A stretch of 62,462 nucleotides of DNA, the filler included. It is 3 parts of 3 records of this genome, joined end to end, with 100 filler letters (N's around TTAATTAATTAA, not from the genome) between each part and the next. Parts side by side here need not be neighbours in the genome. Positions count along the whole stretch, not along the records: positions 1 to 21,852 come from SRR22947727_4916; positions 21,953 to 52,676 come from SRR22947727_4930; 1 more part is not named here. The stretch is one strand, 5' to 3'. Position numbers and translations under genes: made by a program. Of this stretch, positions 361-49,244 are shown one piece after another (the first letter of the stretch is position 1; each line of letters begins with the position of its first letter). The notes below the pieces were generated by a model that worked only from the letters and a program-made list of their open reading frames with translations, ran no database searches and was not told the origin of the DNA.

Positions 361-403
361 CGAACCAATTGGGTGTGTTCGCCGAATCGACCCTGTTGGT
401 TCG
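361..403. repeat. 43-bp doublet of dispersed palindromic unit (intergenic)
   Basis: CGAACCAA-TTGGG-TGTGTTCG-C-CGAATCGA-CCCTG-TTGGTTCG; same 8-5-8-1-8-5-8 layout as seven other copies in the window. Confidence 0.85.
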
Positions 404-583
404 AAACGGGCGCATGACAAAATTCCGGCCAAATTTTGGAATCTGACCGAAATGAGTGGGGATCGATTGGTGCAGAATGCGAAAACGAAAAAAGCGTCCA
501 CAAGCGGGAATCTCCAGCTTGTGGCTTTGGTGGCTTCTTAAAATGGGATCAGTAGGGGGTTGATTTCCCCTTATGATCTTCGC

Positions 584-2872
584 TTATTTTTGTTTCAACA
601 CCTGAACGGCGTCGATGTGGACATTCCCGTCGATGCCCTCGGTTGTGATGACCACTTGGCCTGGAGTCCCTTTTTTGAAGGTGTGAACTCCGACCGTGTA
701 AAAACTGTGCTGCAACGGCGGCGCGACCCGCTGATTCAAGATGACAGTTTTCTCGCCGTTTTCAGATTTGATGGTCACTGGAGTTTTCGTGGAGCGGTTT
801 TCATGGGGCAAGCTGGCAACGCGGACTTCGTAATCGCCGTCGGCAGGAACTTCGAATTCGAAGGTCGCGGTCGCACCCGATCCTGCGCTGGCATAACGAT
901 AACCGTTTTCGATGTGATTTTTCAATCCGGCTCCCTGTGCCCATTTTCCAGTCAATTTGGCCGCATCATCGTCGATGACGATGCCAGTGATCTTGCTGAG
1001 TGGAATGTATCCTGTCACTTCCGGCTCGAACTTCGGCAAATTAGGATCTTCAGCGAATTCGTCTGAAATCGAGGCGCGACGCATATTTCCAGGAAGTCGC
1101 ATGAGTTCAACCAATTCGTCGAGATGCTGGTAGTACACCTCGCGAGGTGTCACGTCGTGCTCAGTGCAAAGGGCCGCCGCTTTTCCGACAACGACACCCA
1201 TCATCCCGCAGGTTTTCATGACGCGAACGGTTCCAAGTGCTTTGTGAGTCACTGAAACGTTTCGACCTGCCATGAAGAGGTTTTCGATATTTCGGGAGTA
1301 GAAGCAACGATATGGCACCGGATAGCCTTTCTTTCGATCAACGCCCTTGCCATGCTGGGCATAGGAAATGAAGGGATTGTCGGGAAATTTCTTGGCGTAT
1401 TGCTCCTTCGGATAGTGGAGGTCAACCGACCAGGTCGTCAGCACGCAACCATCGTTAAATGGCTTTTTGCTAACGATGTCTTCTTCGGTCAAAATCACGT
1501 CGCCGAGCAGCTGCTGTGTCTCGCGAGTGCCGCCGATGTAGGCAATCCAAGTCATCTCTGAGGTTTTGTGAGCGTTGCCTGTTTTATCGTAACGATCGTA
1601 AGCGCCTTTGTTTTTCAGGGCGTTCCAGGCTCCGAAGCTTGCACGGAGGTTCCAATCGCGGATCGATTCGAGATCGTTCAAAGGGTGTTTGTCGTAGCCG
1701 CTTTCCCAAAACCACTGCGCGTGGAATTTTTGAGGGTAGGGGAAGTCGCCTTCTGCCAAATCAAGTGCCCAGGGCGTCTCTGGGAATGTCGTGTCCGCAT
1801 CAGTGTTTGCCCATGACCACATGTTGGACATTCCCATGCGTCCGGCGTCGATCATTTCACGATCGGCGTTCGCTTTCATTCCGATGTAGCCGTGACCCGT
1901 GGTGTCGCAGAAATTCCGGGCGGTGAAGCGTCGAATGGCTCCGGTCCGGGTGTCAAAGGCGAGAACTGCCCTGATTTTTGTCTCGCTCTCCATCTCGACT
2001 TCGTAGCCGTGGTGCCAGAGGAACAGGTCGAGATTTTTCTCGGCTTCGGTGATCTCCAGCTTCTTATCGTCTTCAAACTCCTCAGCAGGGGCTGGTGATG
2101 CGCTGGCGTCGTCATCGAGTTCACGCACAATGTCGCCAACTGGATAAAGTCCCGGAGGAGTATTTCCCATTGCCCAGACCCGAACTTCGCTGGAGCCGTT
2201 TCCGCCGAGAACCCCGCGGTTTTGAACCAATGCGACTTTCAATCCCATACGTGCTGCTGAAATTGCGCCGGCATTGCCTGCAAATCCTCCGCCAATGAAA
2301 ACAATGTCGTAGGGACCTTGTTCGATGGGTTCCGCTGAAATCCCGGCAAGCTCACGTCGCCATGCTGGAAGAATGTCGCTTGAATTGTCCGGGACAAATC
2401 CAGTTTCGTTCGAGAAAATAATCGCATCGCAACGACCGTTGAATCCGGTCAAATCGTGAAGGGCGAGTTTCACTTCCGTGCTGGCGATCTCAACTTCGCC
2501 GCCTTCCTGCCAGTGCCAGTCTGCGCCTTTGGTTCCGAATTTCTCTCCGACTGCTTTGCCGTTGACCATCACTTCAAACTTTCCGGGTGCGCCTGCGGCC
2601 TTCCACTGAGCGACCCAATCTTTGGTGCGCACCCACATTTTGTATGTACCGGCAGCGGGAAATTTCACGGTTGTTTCAGCATTCGCGACCGGTTTGCCCA
2701 TTCCGTGTGCCATTAGATACGGCGAACCCATGATTTCGATGAACTGCGTGTCCAGCTTCCAGCCGCCCTGATTTTCAAACGACTCCGCTTCCACTAAAAT
2801 CGTATCTGCCCGGAGACCGGAGATCGACAAAAACAGCCCTGCGATGGTTGCAACAATACAAATATTTTTCAT
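584..2872 (-). CDS. Secreted FAD-dependent oxidoreductase (FAD_oxidored-like) with C-terminal golvesin/xanthan-lyase-like beta-sandwich
   Basis: Signal peptide MKNICIVATIA; FAD motif IVFIGGGFAG; LGGNGSSE, VPYRCFYSRNIENLFMAGR and RVMKTC motifs; C-terminus IVIDDDAAKLTGKW...HIDAVQ. Start moved from 2929 to the ATG at 2872. Confidence 0.8.
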   Translation of the reverse strand: MKNICIVATIAGLFLSISGLRADTILVEAESFENQGGWKLDTQFIEIMGSPYLMAHGMGKPVANAETTVKFPAAGTYKMWVRTKDWVAQWKAAGAPGKFEVMVNGKAVGEKFGTKGADWHWQEGGEVEIASTEVKLALHDLTGFNGRCDAIIFSNETGFVPDNSSDILPAWRRELAGISAEPIEQGPYDIVFIGGGFAGNAGAISAARMGLKVALVQNRGVLGGNGSSEVRVWAMGNTPPGLYPVGDIVRELDDDASASPAPAEEFEDDKKLEITEAEKNLDLFLWHHGYEVEMESETKIRAVLAFDTRTGAIRRFTARNFCDTTGHGYIGMKANADREMIDAGRMGMSNMWSWANTDADTTFPETPWALDLAEGDFPYPQKFHAQWFWESGYDKHPLNDLESIRDWNLRASFGAWNALKNKGAYDRYDKTGNAHKTSEMTWIAYIGGTRETQQLLGDVILTEEDIVSKKPFNDGCVLTTWSVDLHYPKEQYAKKFPDNPFISYAQHGKGVDRKKGYPVPYRCFYSRNIENLFMAGRNVSVTHKALGTVRVMKTCGMMGVVVGKAAALCTEHDVTPREVYYQHLDELVELMRLPGNMRRASISDEFAEDPNLPKFEPEVTGYIPLSKITGIVIDDDAAKLTGKWAQGAGLKNHIENGYRYASAGSGATATFEFEVPADGDYEVRVASLPHENRSTKTPVTIKSENGEKTVILNQRVAPPLQHSFYTVGVHTFKKGTPGQVVITTEGIDGNVHIDAVQVLKQK

Positions 2873-3051
2873 CGTCTGAATCCTATCGCCAGTATGAAAA
2901 TGTTCCAGCTTCAAACACAATAAAAACACGTAGTGTCCAAAGATCTGAAAGTCTCTCTGCTGGGATTCGTCCCACCTTCAGAGAGTTGAGAATCCTCGAT
3001 TTTCGGGTAAGATCCCTAACGTTCCTGAAATAATTTCACCTTCCTGCCAGA

Positions 3052-3465
3052 ATGGTCACCGTCACAGAAAATGCTGCCTCAGCCCTCCGCGATATGCTGG
3101 AGGCAAAAAATGCTTCCCCTGATAAAATGGGGCTGCGGCTTCTTGTCGAAAAAGGAGGCTGCGCGGGAATGAGTTATGCGATGAAAATCGATGCCCCGTC
3201 CGCGACGGATCAAGTCGTCGAGCGTGATGGCGTCAGCTTTTTTGTCGATCCTGAAAGCCTTGAGTATCTTGATGACTCAGAGGTTGATTACGTCGATGCC
3301 TTGAATGATTCAGGCTTCAAAATCAATAATCCGAACGCGGCCCGAAGCTGTGGTTGCGGAACGTCATTCGAACCTGCCAGTGCGGAGAAAGCTCCGGAAT
3401 ACGATCCGTCCATGGATGGTGAAGTCTGCGGCGGGGAGGGCACGGACCTCGAGCGTGACGCTTGA
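3052..3465 (+). CDS. iscA: A-type Fe-S cluster carrier (IscA/HesB/ErpA family)
   Basis: GGCAGMSY and NPNAARSCGCGTSF motifs. Confidence 0.9.
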   Translation: MVTVTENAASALRDMLEAKNASPDKMGLRLLVEKGGCAGMSYAMKIDAPSATDQVVERDGVSFFVDPESLEYLDDSEVDYVDALNDSGFKINNPNAARSCGCGTSFEPASAEKAPEYDPSMDGEVCGGEGTDLERDA

Positions 3466-7018: not shown

Positions 7019-7921
7019 ATGAGCATTCCAAAAGCCCTTTGGCTATCACTGATTCTTACGCTGACCGGCTGCGGCGAGATGAAAGAAAATGCGGCGACTG
7101 CCGTCGATTCGGATCCGGGGAATCAATTTTTCCCGAAAGTGAAGGGGATTGTGCAGATTCTCCCGACTGCCGATCAGCCTACGCGGGTGATCATCGACCA
7201 TGAAGAAATGGAAGGCTACATGTTTGCGATGATCATGCCGTTTTACGTTCAGAATTTGAGCGAACTCAATGGATTGGAACCCGGCTCCGAAGTGACGTTC
7301 GATTTCCACGTGAAAAATTACGAGTCATGGATCGATAACGTTCAGCTCACAGGGAAGAAGGGGAAAATCAAGACCACGCCTGCCGATTGGGAAGAAGATT
7401 CCGATACGCTCTCTCCCGGCGATGTGATGCCCGACTACGATTTCGCGGACGAAAACGGCAAACCAGTGAAGCTGAGTGATTATCGGGGAATGCCAGTCGC
7501 GATGACCTTTGTTTTTGCCCGCTGCCCAGTACCTGAATATTGCCCGAAAATGATGCGGAATTTCAATGAAGTTCGAGAGAAACTTGAAACAGATCCCGAA
7601 GCTCCGGAGAAATTTCAACTCCTCACTATTTCTTTCGATACAGTCAATGACACCCCGGAAGTTCTCAAAAATTGGGGAGCGGCCTACGGACACACGGAGG
7701 AGCAGCCGTGGAGTCTGCTTTCGACTCCCGAAGATGCCAAAATTCGTGAGATCGCGGGTGATGTCGGATTGAAATTCGGGACGATCGAGGGCTCTTACAT
7801 TCACAATCTCCGCACCGTGATTCTCAATCCAGACGGGACCGTGAGGAAAATCTTCACCGACGAAACGTGGAATGTCGATTCGCTGATTGAGGAGATGAAA
7901 GCTGCCGAGAAACAAGAGTGA
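7019..7921 (+). CDS. SCO family lipoprotein with N-terminal CusF-like Cu-binding domain
   Basis: Lipobox LTGC; IDHEEMEGYMFAMIMPF (His/Met motif); FVFARCPVPEYCP; IHNLRT. Start moved to ATG 7019. Confidence 0.85.
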   Translation: MSIPKALWLSLILTLTGCGEMKENAATAVDSDPGNQFFPKVKGIVQILPTADQPTRVIIDHEEMEGYMFAMIMPFYVQNLSELNGLEPGSEVTFDFHVKNYESWIDNVQLTGKKGKIKTTPADWEEDSDTLSPGDVMPDYDFADENGKPVKLSDYRGMPVAMTFVFARCPVPEYCPKMMRNFNEVREKLETDPEAPEKFQLLTISFDTVNDTPEVLKNWGAAYGHTEEQPWSLLSTPEDAKIREIAGDVGLKFGTIEGSYIHNLRTVILNPDGTVRKIFTDETWNVDSLIEEMKAAEKQE

Positions 7922-7948
7922 CTTCAAACTCCCTGTATTCCTAAACCA

Positions 7949-8313
7949 TCACTCGGCCGATCCCAGCCATTCAGCAGAGCGCAGATGATTGATATTGAGT
8001 CCAAGCCCGCCTTCTTCCTCGATTTGGCGAAAACAACTGGCGTCGTCAGTAATCGATAGAATTTTTCGTTTTGAGGCATCAACTACGGAAGCATGAGTGA
8101 ATCCTAAATACGAAAAATAGGGCAATTTACAGATTAACTTACTTTCTTCTGTAGGATGGTGAAGTCTTCGGCGGTATAGCGCTGGGTAAGCTTGAATTTT
8201 GAGACTAGTTCAATCCGGTGAAGTCCTACCAGGAAAACCAAAAACAAATTGGTATCCAGCAATACCCCGTTTTCAGCTTTGCGTAGGAATTCCTGAATAT
8301 ATTCAAATTGCAT
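7949..8313 (-). pseudogene. PIN-domain protein with internal deletion/frameshift
   Basis: Not in the ORF track. ATG 8313 gives MQFEYIQEFLRKAENGVLLDTNLFLVFLVG...RYTAEDF and stops at 8134. Another frame gives ...FSYLGFTHASVV...ILSITDD...NINHLR to TGA 7949. The central PIN segment appears absent. Confidence 0.7.
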
Positions 8314-8503
8314 CCAACAATTCTCGAATTTTCATCTTGGTGACTTTTTTAGTAAGTTTGTCGACTGTAAAGATCTTGAAAGCTCTTGCTGTTCGTCCCA
8401 ACATGGAAATTGCATTTGATTGAAGACGAACCATTCCTAAAGTGACCAGCCATTCACTCCCAATGTCCTCAACTTCTTCAAGAAGGACATCCTTGGCTTC
8501 CAT
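8303..8503 (-). CDS. Small hypothetical protein, partner of the PIN gene (possibly 5'-truncated)
   Basis: MEAKDVLLEEVE...WLVTLG...FKIFTVD...MKIRE; its 3' end overlaps the PIN start codon. Confidence 0.55.
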   Translation of the reverse strand: MEAKDVLLEEVEDIGSEWLVTLGMVRLQSNAISMLGRTARAFKIFTVDKLTKKVTKMKIRELLDAI

Positions 8504-8543
8504 TTGAATCAGATTATGGCAATTAGGCTTCCACTTCAATTCC

Positions 8544-9881
8544 TTAAATCGCGCGGAACTTCGCTTCGACTTTTTCACCGATAAACTCTTTCACGCCGTC
8601 ACCTGCGAGGCGCTGAATCACTTCGTTCAGAAAACCAAAACTGATCATTCGACGGGCGCGCTCGGCGGGAATGCCGCGTGCTTTGAGATAGAAAATTTCT
8701 TCGTCGCTGATCTGACCGCTAGTTGAACCGTGGGAACACTTGACCTGATCGGCATCAATTTCGAGACCAGGCATCGCGTTGGCTTCTGCCTCATCACTGC
8801 CGAGCATGTTACGGCAGGTCTGGTAAGAATCGGTGTGATGCGCGTTCTCGCCAACTTGAATCAGACCGGAGAAAATCGTGCGCGACTGATCGTAAAGGGC
8901 GTTCTTGTAAAGCAGATCACTGGTGGTGTGCTGCGCTTCGTGAAGCTGCAACGTCCGCTGATCATACTCTTCCTTGCTATTCGCGAGGTTTGCTGAAAAC
9001 ATCTGGCTGTCTGCTCCGGTATCGATCATTCGCGAAACCGCTTCGTTGCGAACCCAGGCTGAACCGAGGTTCACGAAGCAGTTTTTCACCTGCGAATCGC
9101 GACCAATCCGGCTAGCATTGATCTGCATGTGCTTGGCTTTTGGGCCATTGTTTTGGAGGGACGCATATTGAATCTTGCCGCCATCACGCGCATCCAAATC
9201 GACCATGCCGATGGTGATTGGTGAGTCATCTTCAGAAATAGTCTCGAAATTCTCGATCACAGAAACAAACGAATTTGCTTCGGCCACGATGAGAGTGTGC
9301 GGAAAGTTTCCAGTCGCTTCGCCGCCGTTGAAGTGGTGAATCTCAATCGGACCATCAATCACGATGTTCTTGGGAACGTGAATAAAAATACCATTCAACG
9401 TCGCCGAACCATGCAAAGTCGCGAATTTCTCAGATCCCAAACGAACGGGATCTTGCATGAAATGCTCTTTCACCAAATCACTGTGCGTTGCTAGCGCTTC
9501 GTTGATTTCAAGACAAATCACGCCTTCAGGCAGTTTTGAAAAATCAGAATCGACCACTTCGCCATTCACGAACAGACAGTGTCCGATCGATGACTCAACC
9601 CTATTGGATCGGAAGCGCTTCACGATCGCACCCTGTTCGATCGATGAACCAACAGGGGTGATTCGTTCGAAGCGAATTTTCTTCAGGTCCGCGAAACGCC
9701 AGTCCTGATCCTTACGGGTTGGCTCCGGGGTTTCGAGAAAACTGTGCCAGGAATCGGCTTGGATTTGCTGATACCAATCAGGTAAAACATGGCCGGTGTC
9801 GCGGCGCGGAGGTTCGGAAACCCATTCTCCTTTTAAGGATGAGGATGATGACATTTCAGGCTGTTTCAAAGTTTCAGGCAT
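8544..9881 (-). CDS. sufD: Fe-S cluster assembly protein SufD
   Basis: PTRKDQDWRF, SDLLYKNAL, PGLEIDADQVKCSHGSTSG, FYLKARGI; directly downstream of sufB; start uncertain (9881 chosen). Confidence 0.92.
   Translation of the reverse strand: MPETLKQPEMSSSSSLKGEWVSEPPRRDTGHVLPDWYQQIQADSWHSFLETPEPTRKDQDWRFADLKKIRFERITPVGSSIEQGAIVKRFRSNRVESSIGHCLFVNGEVVDSDFSKLPEGVICLEINEALATHSDLVKEHFMQDPVRLGSEKFATLHGSATLNGIFIHVPKNIVIDGPIEIHHFNGGEATGNFPHTLIVAEANSFVSVIENFETISEDDSPITIGMVDLDARDGGKIQYASLQNNGPKAKHMQINASRIGRDSQVKNCFVNLGSAWVRNEAVSRMIDTGADSQMFSANLANSKEEYDQRTLQLHEAQHTTSDLLYKNALYDQSRTIFSGLIQVGENAHHTDSYQTCRNMLGSDEAEANAMPGLEIDADQVKCSHGSTSGQISDEEIFYLKARGIPAERARRMISFGFLNEVIQRLAGDGVKEFIGEKVEAKFRAI
9569..9611. repeat. 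43-bp doublet of palindromic unit inside sufD
   Basis: CGAACAGA-CAGTG-TCCGATCG-A-TGACTCAA-CCCTA-TTGGATCG; encodes RSNRVESSIGHCLF. Confidence 0.7.
9623..9665. repeat. 43-bp doublet of palindromic unit inside sufD, cores in outward arrangement
   Basis: CGATCGCA-CCCTG-TTCGATCG-A-TGAACCAA-CAGGG-GTGATTCG; encodes RITPVGSSIEQGAI. Confidence 0.7.
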
Positions 9882-9906
9882 TCGAAGAAGAGGGCAGGTG
9901 ACCACA

Positions 9907-11319
9907 TTACCCAACGGAGCCTTCCATCTGCAAATCGATGAGGCGTTTCAGTTCGACGCTGTATTCCATTGGGAATTCGCGGGCGAGGTCATTGATGAAT
10001 CCGTTCACACTCAAGCTCATAGCTTCGGCTTCGTTCAAACCCCGTTGTTTCATATAGAAAATCTGGTCTTCGCTGACTTGGCTGACGCTGGCTTCGTGCT
10101 GAGTCGCGTGCTGATTTCCCTTCACCGTGATTGCTGGATAGGTATCTGTCCGGCTGTTGGTGTTGATGAGAAGCGCGTCGCACTCGGTGTTGTTCTTGCA
10201 GCCCTTGAGATGCTTAGGAATGTGAACCTGACCACGATAAGTGGAGCGTCCTGTTCCCACAGAGATCGATTTTGCGATCACGTTCGAAGTCGTTTCGTCG
10301 GCTGCGTGGATCATTTTAGCGCCGGTGTCTTGGTGCTGTCCGTCGTTTGCGAGGGCGATTGAAATCACTTCGCCCCGAGCTTTGCGACCTTTCATGATCA
10401 CGCCTGGATATTTCATCGTGAGGCGGGATCCGATGTTGCAATCAATCCAGCGGATCTCTGCATTTTCGTGAGCAATACCGCGCTTCGTCACGAGGTTGAA
10501 AACGTTGTTCGACCAGTTCTGAACGGTGATGTATTGGATTTTCGCATCCTTCATCGCAACAAGCTCAACCACAGCCGAGTGAAGCGTCGCTGTCTCGAAT
10601 TTCGGAGCTGTGCAGCCTTCCATGTAAGTGACTTCAGCGCCTTCATCGACAATGATGAGCGTCCGCTCAAACTGACCGAAGTTCTCGGCATTGATTCGGA
10701 AATACGCCTGTAGCGGGTGTTTCACTTTCACTCCCGGAGGAACGTAGATGAAGCTTCCACCAGAGAAAACCGCGCTGTTCAGAGCTGAAAACTTGTTGTC
10801 GCCGGTTGGGATGACTTTGCCAAACCACTTGCGAAAAATCTCAGGATGTTCGCGAAGTCCTTCAGTGGAATTTACGAAGACCACTCCTTCTTTGGTAAGC
10901 TCTTCTTTTACGTTCGAATAAGCCGCTTCAGAATCGAATTGAGCTTCAACTCCCGCAAGAAACTTCCGTTCTTTCTCAGGAATCCCAAGACGCTCGAAGG
11001 TTTCTTTCACGTCGTCAGGAACCTCGTCCCATGAGCGCGTCGGCGTCTGACCTTTCGCCAGATAGTAGCGAATATTTTGGAAGACAATGTTTTCAAGGTC
11101 CTTTGATGCCCAGTGAGTTGGCATCGGTTTATCATTGAAAACTTTAAGCGCACGTTTCCGGAAGTCGCGAACCCAATCCGCTTCCTTTTTGATGTCGGAA
11201 ATGTAATCGAGGACACCTTCGTTCAGGCCGGTGCCTGCATCGTGCTTGTAGTCCTCAGGATAAGAGAAATCGCCAGTATCTGCGATATTGACTGCATCGA
11301 GTGTTGCTTGGTCGCTCAT
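9907..11319 (-). CDS. sufB: Fe-S cluster assembly protein SufB
   Basis: [32 protein letters not shown], terminal QMEGSVG. Confidence 0.97.
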
Positions 11320-11371
11320 GTTGGAAGTTTGGTTAAAAGTTTTCGGTATTCAATACGGACGAGTTGAGGTT

Positions 11372-17212: not shown

Positions 17213-17256
17213 CGAGTCAATAGGGTCTGTTTCGATGAACCAACCCTATTGGTTCG
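17213..17256. repeat. 44-bp doublet of palindromic unit (intergenic)
   Basis: CGAGTCAA-TAGGG-TCTGTTTCG-A-TGAACCAA-CCCTA-TTGGTTCG (one extra base). Confidence 0.85.
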
Positions 17257-21390: not shown

Positions 21391-21852
21391 ATGTGTATGA
21401 TGAATTGGTGCTCGGACCCAACAAACGCGGAGAATTTCTCGGTGTTTTTCAATCGTGATGAGAGCAAAGAGCGCTCGATTGCGGAGCCTCCAGCTGAGCT
21501 TGTGACGGAATCCGGCACTCGATTCCTGATGCCAACTGATCTCGATGCGGGCGGGACGTGGATGTTTGTGAATGAACGCGGCGGCGTCGTGACGTTGCTG
21601 AATTGGTATGACAAGGCGGTTCCGTATGCTGAGAAGGCGTCTCGATTTCGCAGTCGGGGGCTTTTGGTAAAAGAGTTGGCGGATGTTCGTGACTTGGGAG
21701 AGTTGGAGAATCGATTAGTTGAGGTAAAAGAGAGAGCTCCGTATCGACCATTTCATTTATTGGGCTTTGCACCGAATTCGTCGCCATGTGGGTGGAGCTG
21801 GGATGGGAAGTCCGTTTCGAAGCAACAGGGTTGGTTCATCGGTAAGTTCAAC
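21391..21852 (+). CDS. NRDE/TANGO2-family protein, truncated by contig end
   Basis: N-terminal MC, FNRDE, AGGTW, TLLN, SRGLLV. Confidence 0.85.
21818..21838. repeat. Single palindromic unit near contig end, inside the NRDE ORF
   Basis: CGAAGCAA-CAGGG-TTGGTTCA. Confidence 0.65.
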
Positions 21853-22153: not shown

Positions 22154-22174
22154 CGAACCAATAGCGTTAGTTCA
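22154..22174. repeat. Degenerate single palindromic unit
   Basis: CGAACCAA-TAGCG-TTAGTTCA. Confidence 0.55.
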
Positions 22175-25892: not shown

Positions 25893-26819
25893 TTATTCGT
25901 TACTTGAAATGGGCGCATCTCCTTCCACAACGACTGTATAAACTCCAACACGGCCTTCCTGGGGTTCTGTGTCATGAACACCCGGTGAAATTTGCTCTTC
26001 TTTGATTCCTGCTGCTTTCAAAACTCCTTCAACCGTTTTAATTCGCAGCGCTTCCATCTTTCGATTCCCTTCTGCATTCCCCACGATCGGAAGGGCATGA
26101 ACCTGAAATTGCGCGCCGGGAACTTTTAAGTCAGCGACCAGCTTTTCGTGTTCCTTCAAAAGGCCCGTCATCCGCTGTTGTTGACGGAGCCCATCTTCAG
26201 AAAGCTCGTCGCCCCCCGATAGGAAAATAAAAGTGAGTTCTCCAATCTCTTCACGAACTTCATCGAGGCGTGCCTGCGAGGAGTTCTTCAGATTTTCAAT
26301 GTTCACCTCTCCCGTTAAAACAAGACTGGGAAGTTCCCGAACCACATTGGAAAATAGCGGCTCGTCCAAATGCCCTTTCAGAAACCACTGGTCGTCCTCC
26401 AGATAAATTTCAGCAGTTGTCGCAGCTTCCGGGAATCGCGTCTGAAAAACGGACTTCGTCATCGTCTCCAAATCGTCGCGGCGAACTTTTGAGACCGCTT
26501 CAACCATGTCTCCAAACCGATCAATAAACTCCGCATTGGCGACTTTCAAACCACGAAACTCTTTTTGCCAAACCGGCTTTCCCATCGACGCCCAAAAATC
26601 CGTCAGCGAATCCCCCACAAAGACGAGGTCCCCTGATTTCATCCGCTTAAATTCCGCATTTTGGTCCCAATACCGCTTCAGCCATTGCTTCGTTCCCCCA
26701 TTTTGGGCGATCCACGGCTTGTTTCGATCAGATAGGGTTGGTTGTTTTTGGTTAGGGCTGCCTTCCGGGTTCGCGAAAGCGAAGCCAAAAACAAGAGCCA
26801 AAGCAGCCATCCATTTCAT
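25893..26819 (-). CDS. Probable chimeric ORF: SGNH/GDSL esterase N-terminus joined to an unrelated C-terminus
   Basis: Signal peptide and LVFVGDSLTDFW...VWQKEF...VAN, then no SGNH blocks II, III or V; junction about 26531. Confidence 0.5.
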   Translation of the reverse strand: MKWMAALALVFGFAFANPEGSPNQKQPTLSDRNKPWIAQNGGTKQWLKRYWDQNAEFKRMKSGDLVFVGDSLTDFWASMGKPVWQKEFRGLKVANAEFIDRFGDMVEAVSKVRRDDLETMTKSVFQTRFPEAATTAEIYLEDDQWFLKGHLDEPLFSNVVRELPSLVLTGEVNIENLKNSSQARLDEVREEIGELTFIFLSGGDELSEDGLRQQQRMTGLLKEHEKLVADLKVPGAQFQVHALPIVGNAEGNRKMEALRIKTVEGVLKAAGIKEEQISPGVHDTEPQEGRVGVYTVVVEGDAPISSNE

Positions 26820-29771: not shown

Positions 29772-29814
29772 CGAACCAATAGGGTTGGATCAATGAACTT
29801 ACCCTGTTGATTCA
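29772..29814. repeat. 43-bp doublet of palindromic unit (between convergent genes)
   Basis: CGAACCAA-TAGGG-TTGGATCA-A-TGAACTTA-CCCTG-TTGATTCA. Confidence 0.88.
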
Positions 29815-33819: not shown

Positions 33820-33862
33820 CGATCCGGTAGGGTACGTTCGATGAATCCACCCTGTTGGTTCG
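33820..33862. repeat. 43-bp doublet of palindromic unit (between convergent genes)
   Basis: CGATCCGG-TAGGG-TACGTTCG-A-TGAATCCA-CCCTG-TTGGTTCG. Confidence 0.85.
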
Positions 33863-37567: not shown

Positions 37568-37569
37568 TA

Positions 37570-37612
37570 CGAATCAACAGGATCTGATCGACGAATCAAC
37601 CCTGTTTGATCG
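37570..37612. repeat. 43-bp doublet of palindromic unit (abuts a start codon)
   Basis: CGAATCAA-CAGGA-TCTGATCG-A-CGAATCAA-CCCTG-TTTGATCG. Confidence 0.82.
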
Positions 37613-41200: not shown

Positions 41201-43946
41201 GTTCAAAAACTTTTAGCAGCATCGCCACATCGTCAAAATGAAGTCCGGTTGTCGGCTCGTCAAAAATCAGAAGCGAGCCTTTTTCGATCGAACCCTGTTC
41301 ATTCGCTGAACCAACCCTGTTGGTTCGTTTTGGCTTGGAAAGCAAATGGCCAACTAATTTCAGGCGCTGACTTTCTCCGCCGGAGAGCGTGTTCAGCGGC
41401 TGGCCCAAACGCAGATATCCAAGTCCCACTTCGGCAAGTAGCTGCATGCTCGTGACCGCTTTCGCAGCTTTCCGATCAGGGATCGCAAAGAAAAATTCAA
41501 TCGCTTCACTGACCGTCATTTTGAGAACGTCGTGAATCGATTTTCCTTCGAGCAAAATCTCCATCGCTTCAGGCGTATAGCGCCTTCCCTCGCATTCGGG
41601 GCAGGTCACGTAGAGGTCGGAGAGAAACTGCATCTCAACTTTCTCGTAGCCATTTCCCATGCAGCGTTCGCAGCGGCCCGCCCCGGAGTTGAATGAAAAA
41701 TAGCCTGGTGTTACTCCGCGACTTTTACCGTCAGGCGTTTCTGTGAAGAGCTTGCGGATGTTTTCAAAAACGCCCGTGTAAACCGCCGGAGTCGATCGCG
41801 GAGTTCGCGCAAGTTGCGCCTGATCAACCATCACGACTTCTGCGATTTTCTCCGCGCCGGTCACCTTTTTGCAGGTGCCCGGCTCGTTTTCGGAAGCGTT
41901 GTCGAATGCGCTATTAAGGTTTTCAAAAAGCACCGAATGAATCAGCGTCGATTTTCCGGAGCCAGAAACACCTGTGACGCAGCAAAAAACGCCAAGCGGA
42001 ATATCCACGTCGATCTTCTTTAGATTGTGTTGAGTCGCCCGCGTGATGTTGATCCAGTCACTCGGCTTCCGCCGCTTCTTCGGGACCTCGATTGTTCGTT
42101 GTCCCTGCAAGTAGTCCAGAGTCAGCGAATTCTGCCCTGTGATTGCTTTGCATTTGTCGGTGAAGACGCCATCAAAAACCAATTCGCCGCCCAATTCTCC
42201 GCGCCCCGGACCGATGTCGATCAAGTGTTCCGCCGCGCGAATCACCGCTTCTTCGTGCTCCACAACGACGAGGGTATTTCCTAAATCGCGTAGCCGATTC
42301 ATCACGCCAATTAGCTTTCCGACGTCTCGTGGATGCAATCCAACCGTCGGTTCATCAAGGACAAATAGCGTGCTGGTCAAGGTTGCTCCAAGACAAGTCG
42401 TCAGATTGACCCGCTGGGTTTCTCCGCCACTGAGCGTCCGAGTCGGCCGATCCAAATTCAAATAGCCGAGCCCGACTTCCTGCAAAAAGCGCAGCCGGTT
42501 GCGAACTTCGTCGAGCAACATTTCGCCGGTTCGATCGCCTTCGCGGGCATTGAGCCTTTCTAAAAAGGCGAGTAGATCATCAATCGAGAGCTTCCAAAAT
42601 TCAGGTAGCGTTCGCCCTTCGACTTTAAAATTCAGGGCTTCCGGTTGAAGGCGTCCGCCTTTGCAAACACGACACGTGGTATAGCTGCGGTAGCGCGACA
42701 GAAAAATCCGCACGTGCATTTTGTAGGCGCGTGCTTCGAGCCAATCGAAAAATCCTCGCACGCCATACCAGCTTTTCATTTCCCAGGCGATCTCAGGATC
42801 ACCGCCATCACCATCGACGATCCAGTCCTGATCCTCCTTCGACATTTCATCGAACGGCTGCACAAAACTGACCCCACGCTGACGCGCACAACGCTCTAGG
42901 TCTTCCTCACATTCGGCGTGACGATCACCTTGAAACGCTTTTACCAATCCCTCAGCAATCGAAAGCGACTTGTCAGGGATCGCTTTATCGATATCGATCC
43001 CGACGACTTTTCCAAAACCACGACACTCAGGACAAGCGCCGAGGGGGTGATTGAAATTGAACAGACCCGGAGTCGGCGGACGCAGCTCGACATCACTTCC
43101 CGGAGAATGCCAGCCGCGTGAAAACTCACGACGGTCGCCCTTCTCTGGCTCAACAATGGTGATGCGGCCTTTACCCAAATCGAGGGCGCGTTCGACAGCT
43201 TCCTGAAATCGCGTTTTCTTTCCCGAAGCAACGCGATCCTGAATTACATCGACAACTGCTGGCAGCGCTTTGCGTTTGTATTTTTTCGGAGCATCCACCC
43301 GGTAGGCTTCGCCAAAAATCCAGACGCGAAGGTAACCCTGAGCTTGCAGAAATTCGAAAAACTCCGCGACTTTGGTTTCTGCTGGAACAGTGATTCCGAA
43401 CAGAACGAGAAGCGGTTTTTCTTTTCCAAATTGCTCGGCTGACTTCCGCAAAATCGTCGCAGGTGAATCCGGCTCGACTTCTTCGCCCGTCTCCGGATCA
43501 TAACCCCTACAAAGGCGAGGAAAGAGCAGTTTCAGGTAGTCGTTGATCTCCGTGATCGTTCCCACGGTTGACCTCGTCGTCTTGACCGCATTCTGCTGCT
43601 GAATTGCAATCGCCGGCGGAATACCGTTGATCGCATCGACCTGCGGTTTGTCCATCCGGTCGAAAAATTGCCGCGTGTAGGGCGAAAAGGTTTCCACGTA
43701 GCGGCGTTGCCCTTCCGCATACAGTGTCTGAAAAGCGAAGCTGGATTTTCCTGAACCACTTGGACCCGTGACCACAACGAATTTCCCCAGCGGCACATCC
43801 AGATCGATTCCCTTCAAATTATTCTGCCGCGCACCACGCACCTCAATCACATCGCCGGTAGCCACTTTCAGCTTGGCCGTCTTCTTCCGTGGAGCAGCCT
43901 TTTTCTTCGTGACCGGGGATTTCTTTTTCTTGGCAGCAGGAGGCAT
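38271..43946 (-). CDS. uvrA: Excinuclease ABC subunit A, double-length (two tandem UvrA units)
   Basis: 1891 aa; four Walker A motifs ([32 protein letters not shown]), four SGGE signatures, Zn-finger CxxC pairs. Confidence 0.96.
41285..41327. repeat. 43-bp doublet of palindromic unit inside uvrA, cores in direct arrangement
   Basis: CGATCGAA-CCCTG-TTCATTCG-C-TGAACCAA-CCCTG-TTGGTTCG; encodes [14 protein letters not shown]. Confidence 0.82.
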
Positions 43947-44042
43947 TTTTGTGAGACGTGTGTTCGCGTGTGCAGTTACGTCATACCGCGAAGAACGGCT
44001 GAATTCCAGCGCTGGTTTTTTGGATTCTTTCCGGAAACCGAG

Positions 44043-44756
44043 TCACTTGCCGCCCGCGCCCGTCAGTTCTCGTAGGGAAACGCGCTGGTTTCCATCCTTG
44101 TCGAAATTGTCGGGATGTAACCACTGCAAGAACGCTGCTTTCAACACGGGCCAATCCGAGTCGATTACCGAATACCACGCCGTATCTCGATTGCGATTTT
44201 TGTAGATGGTCGCTTGTCGAAAAATGCCTTCGAACTAAAAACCAAAACGCTCAGCGGCACGACACGAAGGAGTATTCAGGGCGTCGCATTTCCATTCAAA
44301 TCGACGATAACCGAGCTCAAAAGCGCGATTCATCAGTAGAAAAATGGCCTCCGTCGCGGCAGGAGTCTTTCTCACAAACTTCGAAAAATGAATGTGCCCA
44401 ACCTCGATGTTACCAACGTGTGGCTCGATTCGGAGATAACTGAGAATTCCAACAGTCAGCCCCGTCGATTTCTGAATGATGGCATAAAACTGGGGATCCA
44501 CTTCTACAGCAACCATTTCGATCCACTTCTCAAACTCCATAAAGTCACCAAACGGCCCATACGGTAAATAGGTCCAGCTCGCATCATTTACATCGATCGA
44601 ATTCGCTCCAAAAAGCCCCGCTGCATGGGCAACCGCATCCAAAGGTTCCAGTCGGCAAAATTGACCTTCAATGATTTCCTTTTCAGGAAACGGCGGCGCC
44701 TCCCATTCTGAAAGATAATTGCTAATCGGTTGCCCGTATTCATTTACCGAACTCAT
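44043..44756 (-). pseudogene. RimJ/RimL-type GNAT acetyltransferase interrupted by in-frame TAG
   Basis: IEVGHI, ELGYRRFEWKCDALN..S..AAERFGF-TAG(44235-44237)-FEGIFRQATIYKNRNRDTAWYSVIDSDWP... continues in frame to TGA 44043. Confidence 0.88.
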
Positions 44757-45595
44757 GATTCCATCCAATCCGTTGGGTTCACTCCAAAATACTTCGCCAG
44801 CTGCTCGAATAATTCAGGGTGCTCTTCTTTCAAATCATGCGGCATTTCAAAAAACGTCTCCGTTGAAACGGCAAAAAATTCTGCCGGATTGGTCGCGCCG
44901 TAGGTATCGAGAAGCGGCTTGGGGTGGGACTGGGGATCATTGGTGGCTTTAACGAGTTCTTCGTATTCACGGCTGAAAACCCGCGCCCATTCTGAATAAT
45001 CACCACGCTGAGGAAGCGGCGGAGCTCCATCAGCCGACGAATCGACCTGATCCAGCTGGTGAGCAAATTCGTGATAAACGACGTTCATTCCGTCATCATC
45101 GCGCGCGGCTCCGGCGAGAACATTTTCCCAGGAAAGCACGACTGAACCTGAATTCCACGACTCCCCCAACCGAACGTGATCGTCATCATCGTCGCTGAGA
45201 TCGAACGTGCGCCGCCGGCGATCCCGATACGCACCGGGATAAATCAAAATGGATCGCAGCCGGGGAAAATAGCCGTGTTTCTTCAAGCCAACCAACAGCA
45301 GGCAGGCCTGAGCGGCGACCACGACACGAATTTCATCCGTGATTTCTTTCAACCCACCGCAGGCTTCGAAACTCTTTTCATCGAGAAAAACCTGCATGAT
45401 TCCCGAAAGCCGCGAGCGAAGGGGGGCCGGCAACTGGTTAAAAATCCGAAAGCGTTTTGCAAGAATCGCCTGCCATTTTGCTGGCAACGGCGTCGCGATG
45501 AGATTTCGCCGCTCCGACTTCATCCGAACTTTCCGCGCAATCAAAAAAATCACGGTGGCAAGCAAAATTCCTAAAACTGAAAACGCAATGGTCAC
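44753..45595 (-). CDS. Zinc metallopeptidase family M90 (MtfA-like)
   Basis: VAAQACLLL, LGESW, NVVYHEFAHQLD (HExxH), YGATNPAEFFAVSTETFFE. Confidence 0.9.
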   Translation of the reverse strand: MTIAFSVLGILLATVIFLIARKVRMKSERRNLIATPLPAKWQAILAKRFRIFNQLPAPLRSRLSGIMQVFLDEKSFEACGGLKEITDEIRVVVAAQACLLLVGLKKHGYFPRLRSILIYPGAYRDRRRRTFDLSDDDDDHVRLGESWNSGSVVLSWENVLAGAARDDDGMNVVYHEFAHQLDQVDSSADGAPPLPQRGDYSEWARVFSREYEELVKATNDPQSHPKPLLDTYGATNPAEFFAVSTETFFEMPHDLKEEHPELFEQLAKYFGVNPTDWMES

Positions 45596-45856
45596 AACAA
45601 AATGGTGCTACAAACTGGTTTCGGGATTGTAACTGTCAAAACGCGGATTGCCCCGCATTTTTGTCCTTTGAAAAACGAAACCCGAAATGAACCCCACGGA
45701 GCAATCGCAGGATTCTTGTTCGTTCCCTGGGAATTGTATCGCACAGCACTGAACATCGAATCAGGAAACGCAAAACGCCGAATCTGGTTCACCGCAGGAT
45801 GGATCGCCGTCACGTTGACGACGGTCGGACTCCTTGTGGCTTCAGTTTTTGTGTGA

Positions 45857-48094
45857 TCACTCCGCAAAATACGCAACGGGATCCTTGGGAGCGACGATGC
45901 TTCCGCCCGCTTTAGCTGCCGCACTTTTCATTTCATCGACCAACGCCTTGTCGCTGTCGATCAGCGCAGTTTCATACGGCGCGTTCAGCACGAGAAATCC
46001 GGCAACGTCTCCGTATTTCACCGCTCCGGGAAGAAAATCGGCATCCCAGTGAGTCTTCAGCTTTGCAAAACGAAAGTCGCTCGTGTCGATCCACGCTTTT
46101 TGGATCACGTCGCCACCCGCTACCGCCCGAGCCGCTGCTGCCCAATGACCCGTTCCTTTCGGTGCTGCCAGCGAGATCTTTTTCACCGCCCAGGTTTCGT
46201 TGTTTTTTGCAAACGCGACCGCCGTTAGAATATCGTGAACGCGACGGGAAAACGTGCTGTGATTGTAGCCGTAATAATAAACTGGCGAACGCTGCCAGCT
46301 GTCTTTCGGCAGCTCCGTGTCCTGTTTTTTTGAAAAAATAATCTCGGGGTTTTGCCCAGCTGTTTCCGGCGTCTCCCCCGGATTTAGAAATTCACCCTGC
46401 GCAAAAAGATCCAGCCCCATCACCGCAATTCCACGATCCAGCAGCTTGCGAATCGGTTCGCTCGGACTTCCTAGCTTATCAAAAAGCCCCGCCTTTCCGT
46501 CAGGCGACAGCCAAATCACCACGTGACCTTCCCACCCGTTTTCGGGATACAAAAACGCTGCGGGAACTTCTTCGCCGTGCGTGTCATTGCCGATCAACCC
46601 GCTCAATTCGAGAAATCCATTTCGCTGCTCTTTTCCGACCAGTCCAAAATTCACTTCATCGCTCGTTGGCAAATCACGACCGATCATCACATCAACCGCA
46701 CCGCCAATGACCGATTTCGTTTTCGCAAAATCATCCGCGCTTGCCGGATTCAAAAGCGCTTTCAGCTGCGCATCTGAGTCCTCCGCCCACCATTGGTTCA
46801 ACGATTTTTCGTGAGGCAGCCCGACTTGATCGCCCGATGGCTTGGGATGTTTCTCATCAAAAACCGTCAGATCTGCTTCATCGAGCAATTCAAAATCGCG
46901 CTCCAAAACCGGAGACTCCAATCCCAAACCGAAGTGCTGATTCACAAATTGATACATGTGAGTCCGCGAAACGTGATTGTAATTGTGCTTAAAATGGATG
47001 TCGAAATGCCCTTCGTATTTCTTCGGCGCCCCGACCAGTTTGTAGAGATTCACCAAATCGGGATGCCCCTTTTCCTCAAGCTCAATCGTCCAGTCATCCG
47101 CCGCCGTCAGCCCGAGCGGACGAGGCACCACCGCCGCTGCGATGTCGATATTTCCCTGCCCGATGCGCAGATAATGCGTGTTCTCACACGTGCAACCGCC
47201 CTGCATCGCCGTCGAAACCATCACGCACGGAAACGACGCCGTGACCCGTTGATCCAGCGCACTGACCATCATCGTTTGCGTCGCGCCACCACTCGCACCC
47301 GTCACCAAAATCCGCTCCGAATCGATCCCGTCCAGCCCCGATAGAAAATCCAGCGCGCGAATGCTATTCCACGTTTGCAGACCAAAATTCGTTTGCAGGC
47401 GAGCCGTCGCATTTTTAGAAACAAAGCCCCAATCGCCCATCGCATCGCCACTGGCCTCCGGACGCGGCCCCCGCCGGTGTTCCAGAAACTGATCCGAATC
47501 CGAATCGCCCAGCATGTCATAGAAAAAAACCACGCACCCCATCCGCGCCAGCTGAACGCACCGCGCTTGATGCAGCGAAATTCCCGCATTCAAAAAACGC
47601 TCGCCCCCGATTCGGATTTCATTTTTCGCCGCCGCCTCCGTTTTGTGAGCATGACGTGCATCTTTCCAATGCCCGTGCGCGCAGAGAACTCCCGGTCGCT
47701 TCCCGTTTTTCTCACCTATTTTCAGCGAATCCCCCGCTGGTCGAAACAAACTGCCCGTCACAAAATGACCCGGCATCGATTCAAAAAACACCGCCTCCAC
47801 CGTGTAATCGCCCTTGTCGATTTTTTTGTGAGCCACCACATTTAGCGGCGTTTTCGTTGGCTGAGGCCACAACCCGCATCCCACCGCCATTCGCCGCACA
47901 ATCTGCTCTTGCCGAATTTCCCACTCCGCTTTTGAAGCAACCATACGAAACGGATGATACCCATGCAGCGTCACCGGAGCCTCAAGCCGCACATCCTTCG
48001 GACGCTCGCCATCAGGCGTTGCCGGCAGGCTTTGCGCAACAACCGGGCCGACAAAAAAGGCAGTCGCAATCAGGAACAGGGCGATTTTTCTCAT
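45857..48094 (-). CDS. Secreted two-domain alpha/beta hydrolase (acetylxylan-esterase-like)
   Basis: Signal peptide; VLCAHGHW, VTGASGGATQT (GxSxG), GGCTCE, HNY; start moved to ATG 48094. Confidence 0.8.
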   Translation of the reverse strand: MRKIALFLIATAFFVGPVVAQSLPATPDGERPKDVRLEAPVTLHGYHPFRMVASKAEWEIRQEQIVRRMAVGCGLWPQPTKTPLNVVAHKKIDKGDYTVEAVFFESMPGHFVTGSLFRPAGDSLKIGEKNGKRPGVLCAHGHWKDARHAHKTEAAAKNEIRIGGERFLNAGISLHQARCVQLARMGCVVFFYDMLGDSDSDQFLEHRRGPRPEASGDAMGDWGFVSKNATARLQTNFGLQTWNSIRALDFLSGLDGIDSERILVTGASGGATQTMMVSALDQRVTASFPCVMVSTAMQGGCTCENTHYLRIGQGNIDIAAAVVPRPLGLTAADDWTIELEEKGHPDLVNLYKLVGAPKKYEGHFDIHFKHNYNHVSRTHMYQFVNQHFGLGLESPVLERDFELLDEADLTVFDEKHPKPSGDQVGLPHEKSLNQWWAEDSDAQLKALLNPASADDFAKTKSVIGGAVDVMIGRDLPTSDEVNFGLVGKEQRNGFLELSGLIGNDTHGEEVPAAFLYPENGWEGHVVIWLSPDGKAGLFDKLGSPSEPIRKLLDRGIAVMGLDLFAQGEFLNPGETPETAGQNPEIIFSKKQDTELPKDSWQRSPVYYYGYNHSTFSRRVHDILTAVAFAKNNETWAVKKISLAAPKGTGHWAAAARAVAGGDVIQKAWIDTSDFRFAKLKTHWDADFLPGAVKYGDVAGFLVLNAPYETALIDSDKALVDEMKSAAAKAGGSIVAPKDPVAYFAE

Positions 48095-48335
48095 GCAGAC
48101 GATCCTAGAAAAAATCGCGAACCGTGTCACGCCCGCGAATGCGGGTCTTCGGAAGAAAAAGGGGCATCGATAAATTGATCAATTCATGAACATCCCTGAA
48201 AATTCACCTGTCGATGAATATATTTTTATGACGGCCTCGACTACCCCTCGATCACGCGACCTGAAAATTATTTCCCAATTTCCTTTACATCGCTTACATT
48301 TCGCAGCGATTTTTAAGAAAAACGCACGCAAACTG

Positions 48336-49175
48336 ATGCTTAAGTCGAAAAATCTTAAAACTATGATCCCTGTTGCAATTTTAGCAGCCGTGGGAATTTT
48401 CATGACGATGATTCTTCCGGGGTGTGCCAGTAGCGGTCGTGGAAAATCGTGGGAGCAGCAGCTTGGAGCTATTCCGCAGGGGCCAACTGATCCCGGCAAG
48501 ATGAGAAAGGAAGTCCGGATCAAAAAGGACATGATTCAAAAAGGCCGTTTTGGTAGACGTCTCGATCGTCCGATGACGCCGCGTTTCATCACGATTCACA
48601 GCACGCAGAATTATACAGGCGATGCGTTTGCTCATGCAAAGGCGCTGAAAAGAGGCGCTCTGAAGGGCGGTGTTTGCGGCTATCTTTGCTGGCATTACAC
48701 GGTCCAGGACAACACGGCGATCCAGCACATTCCAACCAACGAGCGCGGCGAACACGCGGATTTTGATGGTCAGGGAAATCGCGAATCGATCGGGATCGAA
48801 ATGTGTGAGCACAAGGGCAACAACCAGGCGCGAACGATTGATCGCACGGCGAAACTCGCTGCATCTTTGATGATGGAGCACAATATTCCGATTCAAAATA
48901 TAGTTCCGCATTACCATTGGCCGCGGCGGGGATACAGTACGCCGAACAAAAACTGCCCGCACTTCCTGATGGATAAAGGCCAGCCGAAGGCAACGTGGAA
49001 ATGGTTTCAAGATCGTGTGGAAGGTCACTACAACCGACTCGTTGCCTATCAGCAGATGATGCAACAAAAGCAGGTGCCGACGAGCCCGATTCCAATGGCT
49101 CCGTCTGAGATGCAGGTCCGTAATTTTGAGCCGATTGCGCCGCTCCAGCCAGCGCGTCCGCAGTCGCGGGATTGA
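48336..49175 (+). CDS. N-acetylmuramoyl-L-alanine amidase (Amidase_2), probable lipoprotein
   Basis: LPGC lipobox; ITIHST, WHYTV, SIGIEMC, IVPHYHW...KNCP; start uncertain. Confidence 0.85.
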   Translation: MLKSKNLKTMIPVAILAAVGIFMTMILPGCASSGRGKSWEQQLGAIPQGPTDPGKMRKEVRIKKDMIQKGRFGRRLDRPMTPRFITIHSTQNYTGDAFAHAKALKRGALKGGVCGYLCWHYTVQDNTAIQHIPTNERGEHADFDGQGNRESIGIEMCEHKGNNQARTIDRTAKLAASLMMEHNIPIQNIVPHYHWPRRGYSTPNKNCPHFLMDKGQPKATWKWFQDRVEGHYNRLVAYQQMMQQKQVPTSPIPMAPSEMQVRNFEPIAPLQPARPQSRD

Positions 49176-49214
49176 TCCAGAATCCGGCCGGATTAATTTC
49201 TGTTTTTGCGGCCA

Positions 49215-49244
49215 TTGAGTCGTTGACTCAACCCTATTGAGTCG
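49215..49244. repeat. One-and-a-half copy of palindromic unit upstream of pheS
   Basis: TTGAGTCG-T-TGACTCAA-CCCTA-TTGAGTCG. Confidence 0.75.

Follow-up and report, generated by a model that had tools for sequence, protein, structure and literature searches.

Repeat units and doublets in the window

The window analysed here is a stretch of 62,462 nucleotides composed of three contigs (positions 1-21852, 21953-52676 and 52777-62462), which are joined by linkers N44-TTAATTAATTAA-N44 at 21853-21952 and 52677-52776, and its first two contigs carry the dispersed palindromic repeat that is the subject of this work. The repeat unit is a 21-bp stem-loop sequence of 8-5-8 build, in which two 8-base arms enclose an asymmetric 5-base centre reading CCCTR or YAGGG, and two such units make up a doublet. 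When the whole window was scanned, all eight doublets and four partial copies were confined to contigs 1 and 2. The initial annotation of this DNA had placed doublets of two 21-bp units and one spacer base at 361, 9569, 9623, 29772, 33820, 37570 and 41285, and a doublet with one extra base at 17213; all of these were recovered, the extra base of the latter lying in its first unit. The partial copies proposed at 21818 and 22154 and the weak unit at 26725 were likewise located, while for the copy proposed at 49215 the unit itself is present and starts at 49224, the earlier start having taken in a stray 8-base arm. With eight doublets and four partial copies in 52.6 kb, the previously noted density of about one site per 4-5 kb also holds. 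The sites are as follows.

361..403 (units 361-381 and 383-403; 20.8 and 29.7 bits): doublet, intergenic, 180 bp past the stop (584) of an FAD-oxidoreductase-like gene, 584-2929 (-)
9569..9611: doublet within the SufD gene, 8544-9914 (-), codons 102-116, phase 0
9623..9665: second SufD doublet, codons 84-98, phase 0, starting 54 bp after the first (equal to the array period described below)
17213..17256: doublet with the extra base in unit 1, starting 20 bp after the stop of a ROK-family gene, 16294-17193 (+); long hairpin of -21.4 kcal/mol, z -5.15
21818..21852: one complete unit (21818-21838, 30.2 bits) plus the beginning of another, in a TANGO2-like open reading frame (ORF) running off the contig; truncated where contig 1 ends
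22154..22174: single unit, 24.9 bits, intergenic, past the stop of an ORF at 22331-23194 (-)
26725..26745: single unit of weak score (16.1 bits), at the 5' end of an ORF at 25893-26819 (-)
29772..29814: doublet starting 12 bp after the stop of a GFO/IDH/MocA oxidoreductase gene, 28714-29760 (+), on which a gene at 30189-31649 (-) converges
33820..33862: doublet filling the gap between the convergent genes 32590-33810 (+) and 33865-35334 (-)
37570..37612: doublet 22 bp past the stop of an ORF at 37634-38224 (-) and just upstream of a ThuA-like gene, 36821-37567 (-)
41285..41327: doublet with the same centre orientation in both units, within a 1891-aa double UvrA gene, 38271-43946 (-), codons 874-888, phase 0, in the loop linking the ABC signature to Walker B
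49224..49250 (+): single unit 49 bp past the stop of an amidase gene, 48186-49175 (+), with an 8-bp stem, a CCCTA loop and T6 behind it; the only window copy resembling a classical terminator

The fixed pattern YGA-N5-(CCCTR or YAGGG)-N5-TCR matches the window 14 times, compared with a mean of 0.22 and a maximum of 2 in 200 mononucleotide shuffles. A weight matrix gave 20 matches of at least 14 bits at 19 positions (mean of 0.25 in 20 shuffles); this first matrix was trained on the same 14 units that it scored, and the count is hence partly circular. To place the repeat in a wider context, a species-level genome collection of 596 Gb was scanned once with the consensus 20-mer GAACCAACCCTRTTGGTTCG, as exact matches only, so that diverged families would escape, and the loci around the matches were merged to 97 segments of 1,108,510 bp in total, covering part of each genome. 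The initial annotation had named codon-preserving shuffles as the test that could refute the repeat. Applied to 661 ORF interiors (783,228 nt) from these loci, the shuffles leave it standing, with 59 units of at least 16 bits observed against 0.4 expected. Weak matches of 6-16 bits in the same ORF interiors are not in excess (45 observed, 35.7 in codon shuffles), and because strong units so far exceed expectation and yet no surplus of weak matches accompanies them, the elements arrive whole and not by gradual drift. In this sense the copies are all-or-none, and the repeat family is real.

A chance or compositional pattern, or an assembly artefact, could appeal to the circularity of the first matrix, to the roughly two random matches of a 20-mer expected in 596 Gb on both strands (by our own arithmetic), and to the lone units of two genomes, SIBE01 and CAMAWP01, which may be random matches within one conserved gene. 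This reading was rejected on the strict-motif shuffles, the codon shuffles and the 207 pairs of units held at a fixed 22-bp spacing in the related loci; moreover, the same family recurs in independent assemblies from different projects, and we give the artefact virtually no credence.

In the 1,108,510 bp of loci, 491 units reach at least 14 bits. Successive units are spaced by exactly 22 bp in 207 cases, which bears out the constant unit spacing first seen in the window, by 32 bp in 21 cases and by 54 bp in 4. Among the 207 pairs, 166 have a YAGGG-centre unit followed by a CCCTR-centre unit (head-to-head), 21 and 17 have both centres alike, and three show the reverse order. The recurring entity is the head-to-head pair, a 43-bp imperfect palindrome that extends to 53-54 bp with its flanking A/T runs. 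The consensus of the 166 doublets is A-CGAACCAACAGGGTTGGTTCG-N-CGAACCAACCCTGTTGGTTCG-T, with about 24 positions conserved in at least 90%, free positions at 4-6, 15-16, 21-23, 28-29 and 38-40, and a variable spacer base (A in 53, C in 27, G in 35 and T in 51). Almost every doublet is distinct in sequence (165 of 166). The column profile of these doublets with 20-bp flanks on each side shows only the A/T-run flanks, and neither a GTAG nor a CGTC tag is present. Extension of the hairpin by the flanks was considered and discarded, with a weak excess of pairing at flank position 3 only (86 observed, 70.0 ± 6.0 expected, of 206) and chance levels elsewhere. Where doublets are adjacent, 12 of 13 share an 11-bp linker, AAA-GSC-TTT, and the resulting 54-bp period is read as whole 53-54-bp elements abutted with their flanks included. 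Arrays with this linker were seen solely in the genome CALAHF01 (12 of 12).

Elsewhere in the window, contig 3 holds no unit of at least 14 bits by the weight-matrix scan, the best match being 10.5 bits at 58597; its start resembles the reverse complement of what we take to be the 5' end of a 16S rRNA gene. At gathering scores, Rfam gave no match to the repeat in the window, and a tRNA gene at 58818-58889 (-) is its sole match there. A short tandem duplication (ccattaaatt, twice) lies at 17281-17305, just downstream of the 17213 doublet.

Host genomes and placement relative to genes

Positions 7235-21852 of the window are 99.97% identical, and positions 31308-42020 are 99.84% identical, to two contigs of CALAHF01, a metagenome-assembled genome (MAG). 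The exact 20-mer was found in 102 stretches, all within eight Verrucomicrobiales MAGs, and 91 of the 102 fall in two of them: JABDJT01 has 48 and CALAHF01 43, followed by JBLWYI01 with five, CBFHPY01 with two, and SIBE01, CALCPI01, JAKSBG01 and CAMAWP01 with one each, the units of SIBE01 and CAMAWP01 sitting in one conserved gene. The matching records are titled as Verrucomicrobiales, Pedosphaera or Akkermansia MAGs. Elements that lack the search word number one in 6.1 kb of CALAHF01 loci, one in 4.7 kb of JABDJT01 loci and one in 12.3 kb of JBLWYI01 loci. The genes of CALAHF01 and JABDJT01 are only 65-80% identical in DNA. An element recurs roughly every 5-6 kb in two or more related, uncultured Verrucomicrobiales genomes and at lower density in one other, and the family is lineage-specific, belonging to a few uncultured marine Verrucomicrobiales. 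At least six of the 102 pattern matches are no more than 100 bp from where a contig ends (loci L019, L021, L023, L028, L039 and L096), and contig 1 of the window itself terminates inside an element (21818-21852).

Among 208 doublets placed relative to predicted genes, 27 lie far within an ORF, 28 at the edge of a segment and 153 between two genes. The intergenic ones divide into 55 between two forward genes, 40 between two reverse genes, 41 in convergent and 17 in divergent pairs, against a background of 247, 216, 138 and 133, respectively; that is, 136 of the 153 lie between co-directional or convergent genes. The distance from stop codon to element is at most 30 bp in 114 of 177 cases, with a median of 15 bp, and in 15 of these 114 the stop is inside the element. 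This closeness to stops is partly built in, because short 3' spacers consist largely of the element itself.

Such a position right behind stops, together with the enrichment between convergent genes, would suit elements that do no more than terminate transcription in this lineage, as intrinsic (bidirectional) terminators whose stem sequences are unusually uniform. The flanks of JABDJT01 agree with this, as 39 of its 96 doublets have at least four T in the five bases downstream and 28 of 96 have at least four A upstream, and the unit at 49224 with its T6 was scored terminator-like in a scan of window positions 29500-49400. It was, however, the only intergenic copy called there, the doublets at 29772, 33820 and 37570 being passed over. 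In CALAHF01, the genome type of the window, the flanks are inverted, with T runs upstream, at least four A downstream in 32 of 101 doublets and at least four T in the five bases downstream in only 5 of 101, and no T run follows the 89 elements that could be oriented by the upstream gene (T fraction of 0.33-0.35 at +2 to +4). In addition, terminators need their structure, yet compensatory changes are absent (see below), and copies within the intact DnaK-like, IscS-like and UvrA genes would truncate their own mRNAs. Termination as the role of the family is therefore very improbable.

Copies inside conserved genes

About an eighth of the doublets are located within real genes. In the window, three of eight are coding (two in SufD and one in the double UvrA), all in phase 0, a point that the initial annotation had missed. 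The loci have 23 doublets situated well within ORFs of 200 aa or longer, distributed as 10, 7 and 6 over the three phases. The DNA of the intragenic doublets matches 27-39 of the 43 consensus positions, and the usual flanks are often present. The effect on protein length, gene by gene, is as follows.

SufD, two doublets: 0 added residues; gapless against 11 homologues, with the stretch inside the SufBD_N domain match
IscS-like: 0 added residues; gapless against a solved cysteine desulfurase
RsmB: none added, against a solved RsmB
DnaK-like: 2 added residues, against a solved DnaK
MnmA: 2 added residues, against a solved MnmA
HemN-like, two doublets: 68 residues for 66 profile positions of the HemN_C domain match
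UvrA: 9 added residues; loop of 49 residues, compared with a modal 40 in 44 of 118 relatives
BlaR1-like, two doublets: 25 added residues, by Pfam match

In the length-neutral cases, the native family already has a few of the residues that translation of the element supplies, such as G-F/Y-x-V...P-V in IscS. The DnaK-like protein can be followed through a series of relatives: the protein and a 99% identical relative carry the doublet, relatives of 89% and 79% identity show 13-14 unrelated residues at the same place, and at 75% identity a relative again shows a canonical doublet, at this place and in the same phase. As well, the Hsp70 relatives P0251, P0264 and P0267 contain the element translation in another frame, with a net gain of 15-16 residues. 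Because these relatives gain so many residues while copies in other proteins add 0-2, both true insertion and length-neutral occupation occur, and the length-neutral copies may be compatible either with replacement or with insertion followed by loss. A comparison of filled and empty sites in genes by cross-genome tblastn yielded one usable pair, of a single unit only.

The Hsp70 loop before VILVGG (P0246-P0267; the site of L048 codons 313-327) is a hot spot in which the element translation appears in two frames, and some Hsp70 relatives bear apparent decayed copies there, for example, LDSTGSGPGANPVVS. With regard to UvrA, the double fusion is the norm of its group, since the 120 listed relatives have 1596-2403 aa and come mostly from Verrucomicrobiales MAGs.

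Inside genes, the family might spread by a conversion-like, templated overwriting of a stretch of similar length, with a preference for targets that already resemble the element, a suggestion that we offer tentatively and regard as unlikely on present evidence. If it is true, overwriting would let a 43-bp palindrome settle in the DnaK-like, IscS-like, MnmA, RsmB and SufD domains with the key residues kept. It would also be a propagation mode undescribed for repetitive extragenic palindromic (REP) sequences, for REP doublets forming hairpins (REPINs), for Rickettsia palindromic elements (RPEs) and for MITEs (miniature inverted-repeat transposable elements), as the portions of the literature searched speak only of insertions.

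Nature of the element family

When folded as single strands, four of the five window doublets of (-,+) order form one long imperfect hairpin that is interrupted by an internal loop, with energies from -15.9 to -21.4 kcal/mol and z from -2.2 to -5.2, and the fifth, at 361, folds otherwise (-16.7 kcal/mol, z -1.5). For two-unit hairpins, 77.0% of cells are paired, compared with 76.3% in column shuffles, of which 9 of 500 were as high, which the caveats of the tool itself mark as a weak signal. Only neighbouring positions share mutual information, and usually just one of the two inner arms is consensus. Covariation at positions 15/29 and 16/28, hinted at by column frequencies, was dismissed, since these positions are paired in just 46 and 23 of 166 doublets, below independence. 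The profiles of fixed and free positions in CALAHF01 and JABDJT01 correlate with r = 0.875, and in the 1.1 Mb around exact search-word matches each genome keeps the same conserved and variable positions. Because conservation tracks positions and not pairing, it is presumably the sequence itself that a protein reads. Owing to its mismatched centre the palindrome stays imperfect, and Di Nocera et al. (2013; PMC3733652) offer the same imperfect-palindrome idea for REP heterodimers.

On balance, the doublets probably represent a lineage-specific family of REP-type elements, transcribed as a 3'-end hairpin whose sequence a protein reads. The element would be transcribed on the 3' end of the upstream mRNA and would fold to a hairpin of about 19 bp with an internal loop, which may buffer the mRNA 3' end against exonucleases or damp read-through, as proposed for REP sequences and bacterial interspersed mosaic elements (BIMEs). 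The protein that reads the sequence would most likely be the enzyme that copies the element. The presence of usually only one consensus inner arm, which leaves the palindrome imperfect near its centre, might reflect selection against unstable perfect palindromes, while intragenic copies would be read through as about 15 codons and persist where their translation fits the local protein sequence.

Several results weigh against this interpretation. Compensatory covariation is absent from the long hairpin of 150 doublets, where 74.8% of cells are paired compared with 75.2% in column shuffles, 427 of 500 of which were as high. In the 95 doublets oriented by their upstream gene there is no sense-strand excess of G:U, with G:T versus A:C counts of 106 versus 124 and 116 versus 132, and because G:T does not exceed A:C, an RNA role is without direct support. 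The polarity of the flanks differs between genomes, being T-rich upstream and A-rich downstream in CALAHF01 and reversed in JABDJT01; this opposition persists even at some sites that the two genomes share. In six genes (SufD, DnaK-like, IscS-like, MnmA, RsmB and HemN-like), the doublet adds 0-2 residues and not 15, which plain insertion fails to explain. No target-site duplication accompanies 206 doublets, as flanking k-mers of k = 2-5 are identical in 30, 19, 8 and 2 cases, compared with 29.3, 18.6, 9.5 and 1.9 in shuffles, and no enzyme able to move the elements was found in 1.17 Mb, which represents part of each genome. Over 25.3 kb shared with CALAHF01 contigs at 99.8-99.97% identity, the window shows neither gain nor loss of an element, and with 165 of 166 doublets distinct and the copy set identical in near-identical contigs, there is no sign of recent movement. 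Finally, the loci were picked by way of an exact consensus word, which 103 of 283 elements contain, and the placement counts rely on gene calls from our own greedy ORF heuristic, which over-calls (92.6% of the DNA being 'coding').

In the same comparison with near-identical CALAHF01 contigs, 1 of 17 single-nucleotide differences falls in an element, so that the elements are no hot spot. The window and one CALAHF01 contig (L080) differ by two bases in length over 14.6 kb, with register lost from about 12156, not at an element. Between diverged genomes, five orthologous elements are identical at 36, 31, 39, 29 and 38 of 43 positions, compared with 33.8 ± 2.8 for random pairs, and flanks are also shared in only two pairs, which is indecisive on shared ancestry.

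Conservation by position rather than by pairing, both strands alike with no G:U bias, would also suit a high-copy double-stranded DNA site for a host protein, kept by selection or conversion-like drive and not by transposition; candidates include nucleoid or chromosome organisation, binding of gyrase or an IHF-like protein as at the BIMEs of E. coli, and a DNA-uptake signal. Such a site would be consistent with the same profile in two diverged genomes, with the retention of the element at shared sites where the flanks are randomised, and with unit spacings of 22, 32 and 54 bp, which would be near whole helical turns; as well, changes of 0-2 residues in conserved domains are the outcome expected of substitution or conversion and not of insertion. 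However, weak or partial sites in coding DNA are not in excess, although a surplus of partial ones would be expected from a gradual build-up of the kind modelled for uptake sequences. The build-up of a DNA uptake sequence (DUS/USS) was rejected on the same count, with no surplus at 6-16 bits in 783 kb of coding DNA (45 versus 35.7). Moreover, the pull to gene 3' ends and the scarcity in divergent promoter regions have no obvious reason at the DNA level, the net insertions of 15-16 residues in Hsp70 relatives P0251, P0264 and P0267 and of 25 residues for the two BlaR1-like doublets are clear, and no binding protein is known. We hold this alternative to be unlikely as a whole.

The search for a mobilising enzyme bears on a stricter version of the REP-type reading, in which a single-copy REP-associated tyrosine transposase (RAYT; a Y1 HUH transposase), encoded elsewhere in the genome, cuts and pastes the non-autonomous doublets in the form of single-stranded hairpins. 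The folding of inverted doublets into one hairpin fits this scheme, as does the absence of target duplication, which is expected of enzymes of the IS200/IS605 type. When 1.17 Mb translated in all six frames was searched by phmmer with E. coli RayT as the query, one match emerged, in JABDJT010000335.1 (L027) at nt 586-1125 (E = 1.1e-13), so a RAYT homologue is present in JABDJT01, and the absence of a match in the window agrees with the earlier remark that no transposase lies there. However, this RAYT-like gene is framed on both sides by pairs of a different, G+C-rich, GTAG-tagged palindrome, four of whose five motif matches in 1.17 Mb lie there, a point against this stricter version as well as against the REP-type reading. 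Some 850 bp, with another ORF in between, separate the gene from the nearest doublet. The RAYT and its GTAG repeats are a separate, classical REP-RAYT unit in a doublet-bearing genome, and the initial proposal to look for a RAYT flanked by dense doublets, once carried out, turned up only this homologue with its own repeats. Nine ORFs have elements on both sides, none of them transposase-like by eye, and regular-expression screens of 912 ORFs for the HUH motif gave 0 and then 6 matches, none convincing, although these screens also missed the RAYT found by phmmer and so count for little. Some sites are common to diverged genomes, which fits the long vertical persistence described for REPINs in published abstracts. 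The units nevertheless bear no GTAG or CGTC tag, and insertion alone leaves the length-neutral gene copies unexplained; strict REPIN-RAYT membership is, in our judgement, distinctly unlikely. What stands of the old REPIN family suggested in the initial annotation is the doublet build, the location behind stops and the long hairpin, and what fails, on the evidence of the 1.17 Mb searched, which covers part of each genome, is strict membership, as the units are untagged and the one RAYT there has other repeats.

A broader REP-type affiliation can be judged against known systems. In the REPIN-RAYT systems of Pseudomonas and Enterobacteria, inverted REP doublets are the replicating unit and reach hundreds of copies per genome. 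In E. coli, REP/BIME sequences consist of two unit types in alternating orientation behind stops, have proposed roles in mRNA 3'-end stability and host-protein binding, and are essentially extragenic; the present family resembles them, by description, in its two-unit mosaics behind stops, and differs in being intragenic as well. RPEs add residues to proteins, whereas six genes here gain 0-2, and MITEs make direct target duplications, whereas the 206 doublets examined are at chance level. RPEs, also named in PMC3733652, share with the present family in-frame palindromes tolerated in conserved genes, in unrelated hosts.

REPIN-RAYT systems are the subject of PMC3116915 and PMC3337134. Such systems share inverted doublets, high copy number and long vertical persistence with the present family, and differ in having spacers of tens of bp, a GTAG tag and an adjacent RAYT, compared with a 1-bp spacer, no tag and no RAYT next to the elements. 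The sections of PMC3733652 on REP structure describe families with 8-9-bp stems and 4-5-nt loops, head-to-head dimers with a preference for heterodimers, a location less than 20 bp from ORF 3' ends and, for CGTC-type families, no dedicated transposase. The CGTC-type families there are thus like the present one in stem and loop size, in mostly head-to-head dimers and heterodimer preference, in proximity to ORF 3' ends and in lacking a dedicated transposase; the present units have no CGTC tag or CCA tail, and the hosts in that account are mainly Alphaproteobacteria. The same source, where it treats Opitutus terrae, reports dimers with 1-2-bp spacers and many intragenic copies, including in uvrA, which are regarded as insertions. 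These GTAG-17 and GTAG-19 dimers are likewise verrucomicrobial short stem-loops paired at 1-2 bp, encode about 15 residues when intragenic, as the present doublets do, and count uvrA among their host genes (PMC3733652). Their units differ in the GTAG-type tag and in the G+C-rich genome, and their encoded peptides, such as VAGVADIGPDSTSQA, are unlike those of the present family, this comparison being by description and peptides and not by DNA consensus.

Full-text word searches of the open-access literature (REP, REPIN or RAYT with Verrucomicrobia, and coding palindromic elements) found no description of the family, and length-neutral intragenic copies were likewise undescribed in such searches. 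The family belongs to the class of REP-like palindromic repeats and is closest in build to the Opitutus terrae REP dimers; it is newly described here, and the REP-type class is already known.

The family serves to mark a single clade of marine, uncultured Verrucomicrobiales, and its elements, which seem to break short-read assemblies of these genomes, explain assembly breaks in them. It is also one more palindromic repeat with neither a tag nor a transposase, and how this class arose is presented as an open question in PMC3733652. The most interesting part is the presence of a 43-bp element within conserved housekeeping domains at almost unchanged length. If replacement is what places it there, the finding would bear on how such repeats come to be copied and on how constraints at the DNA and protein levels are reconciled in the same bases.

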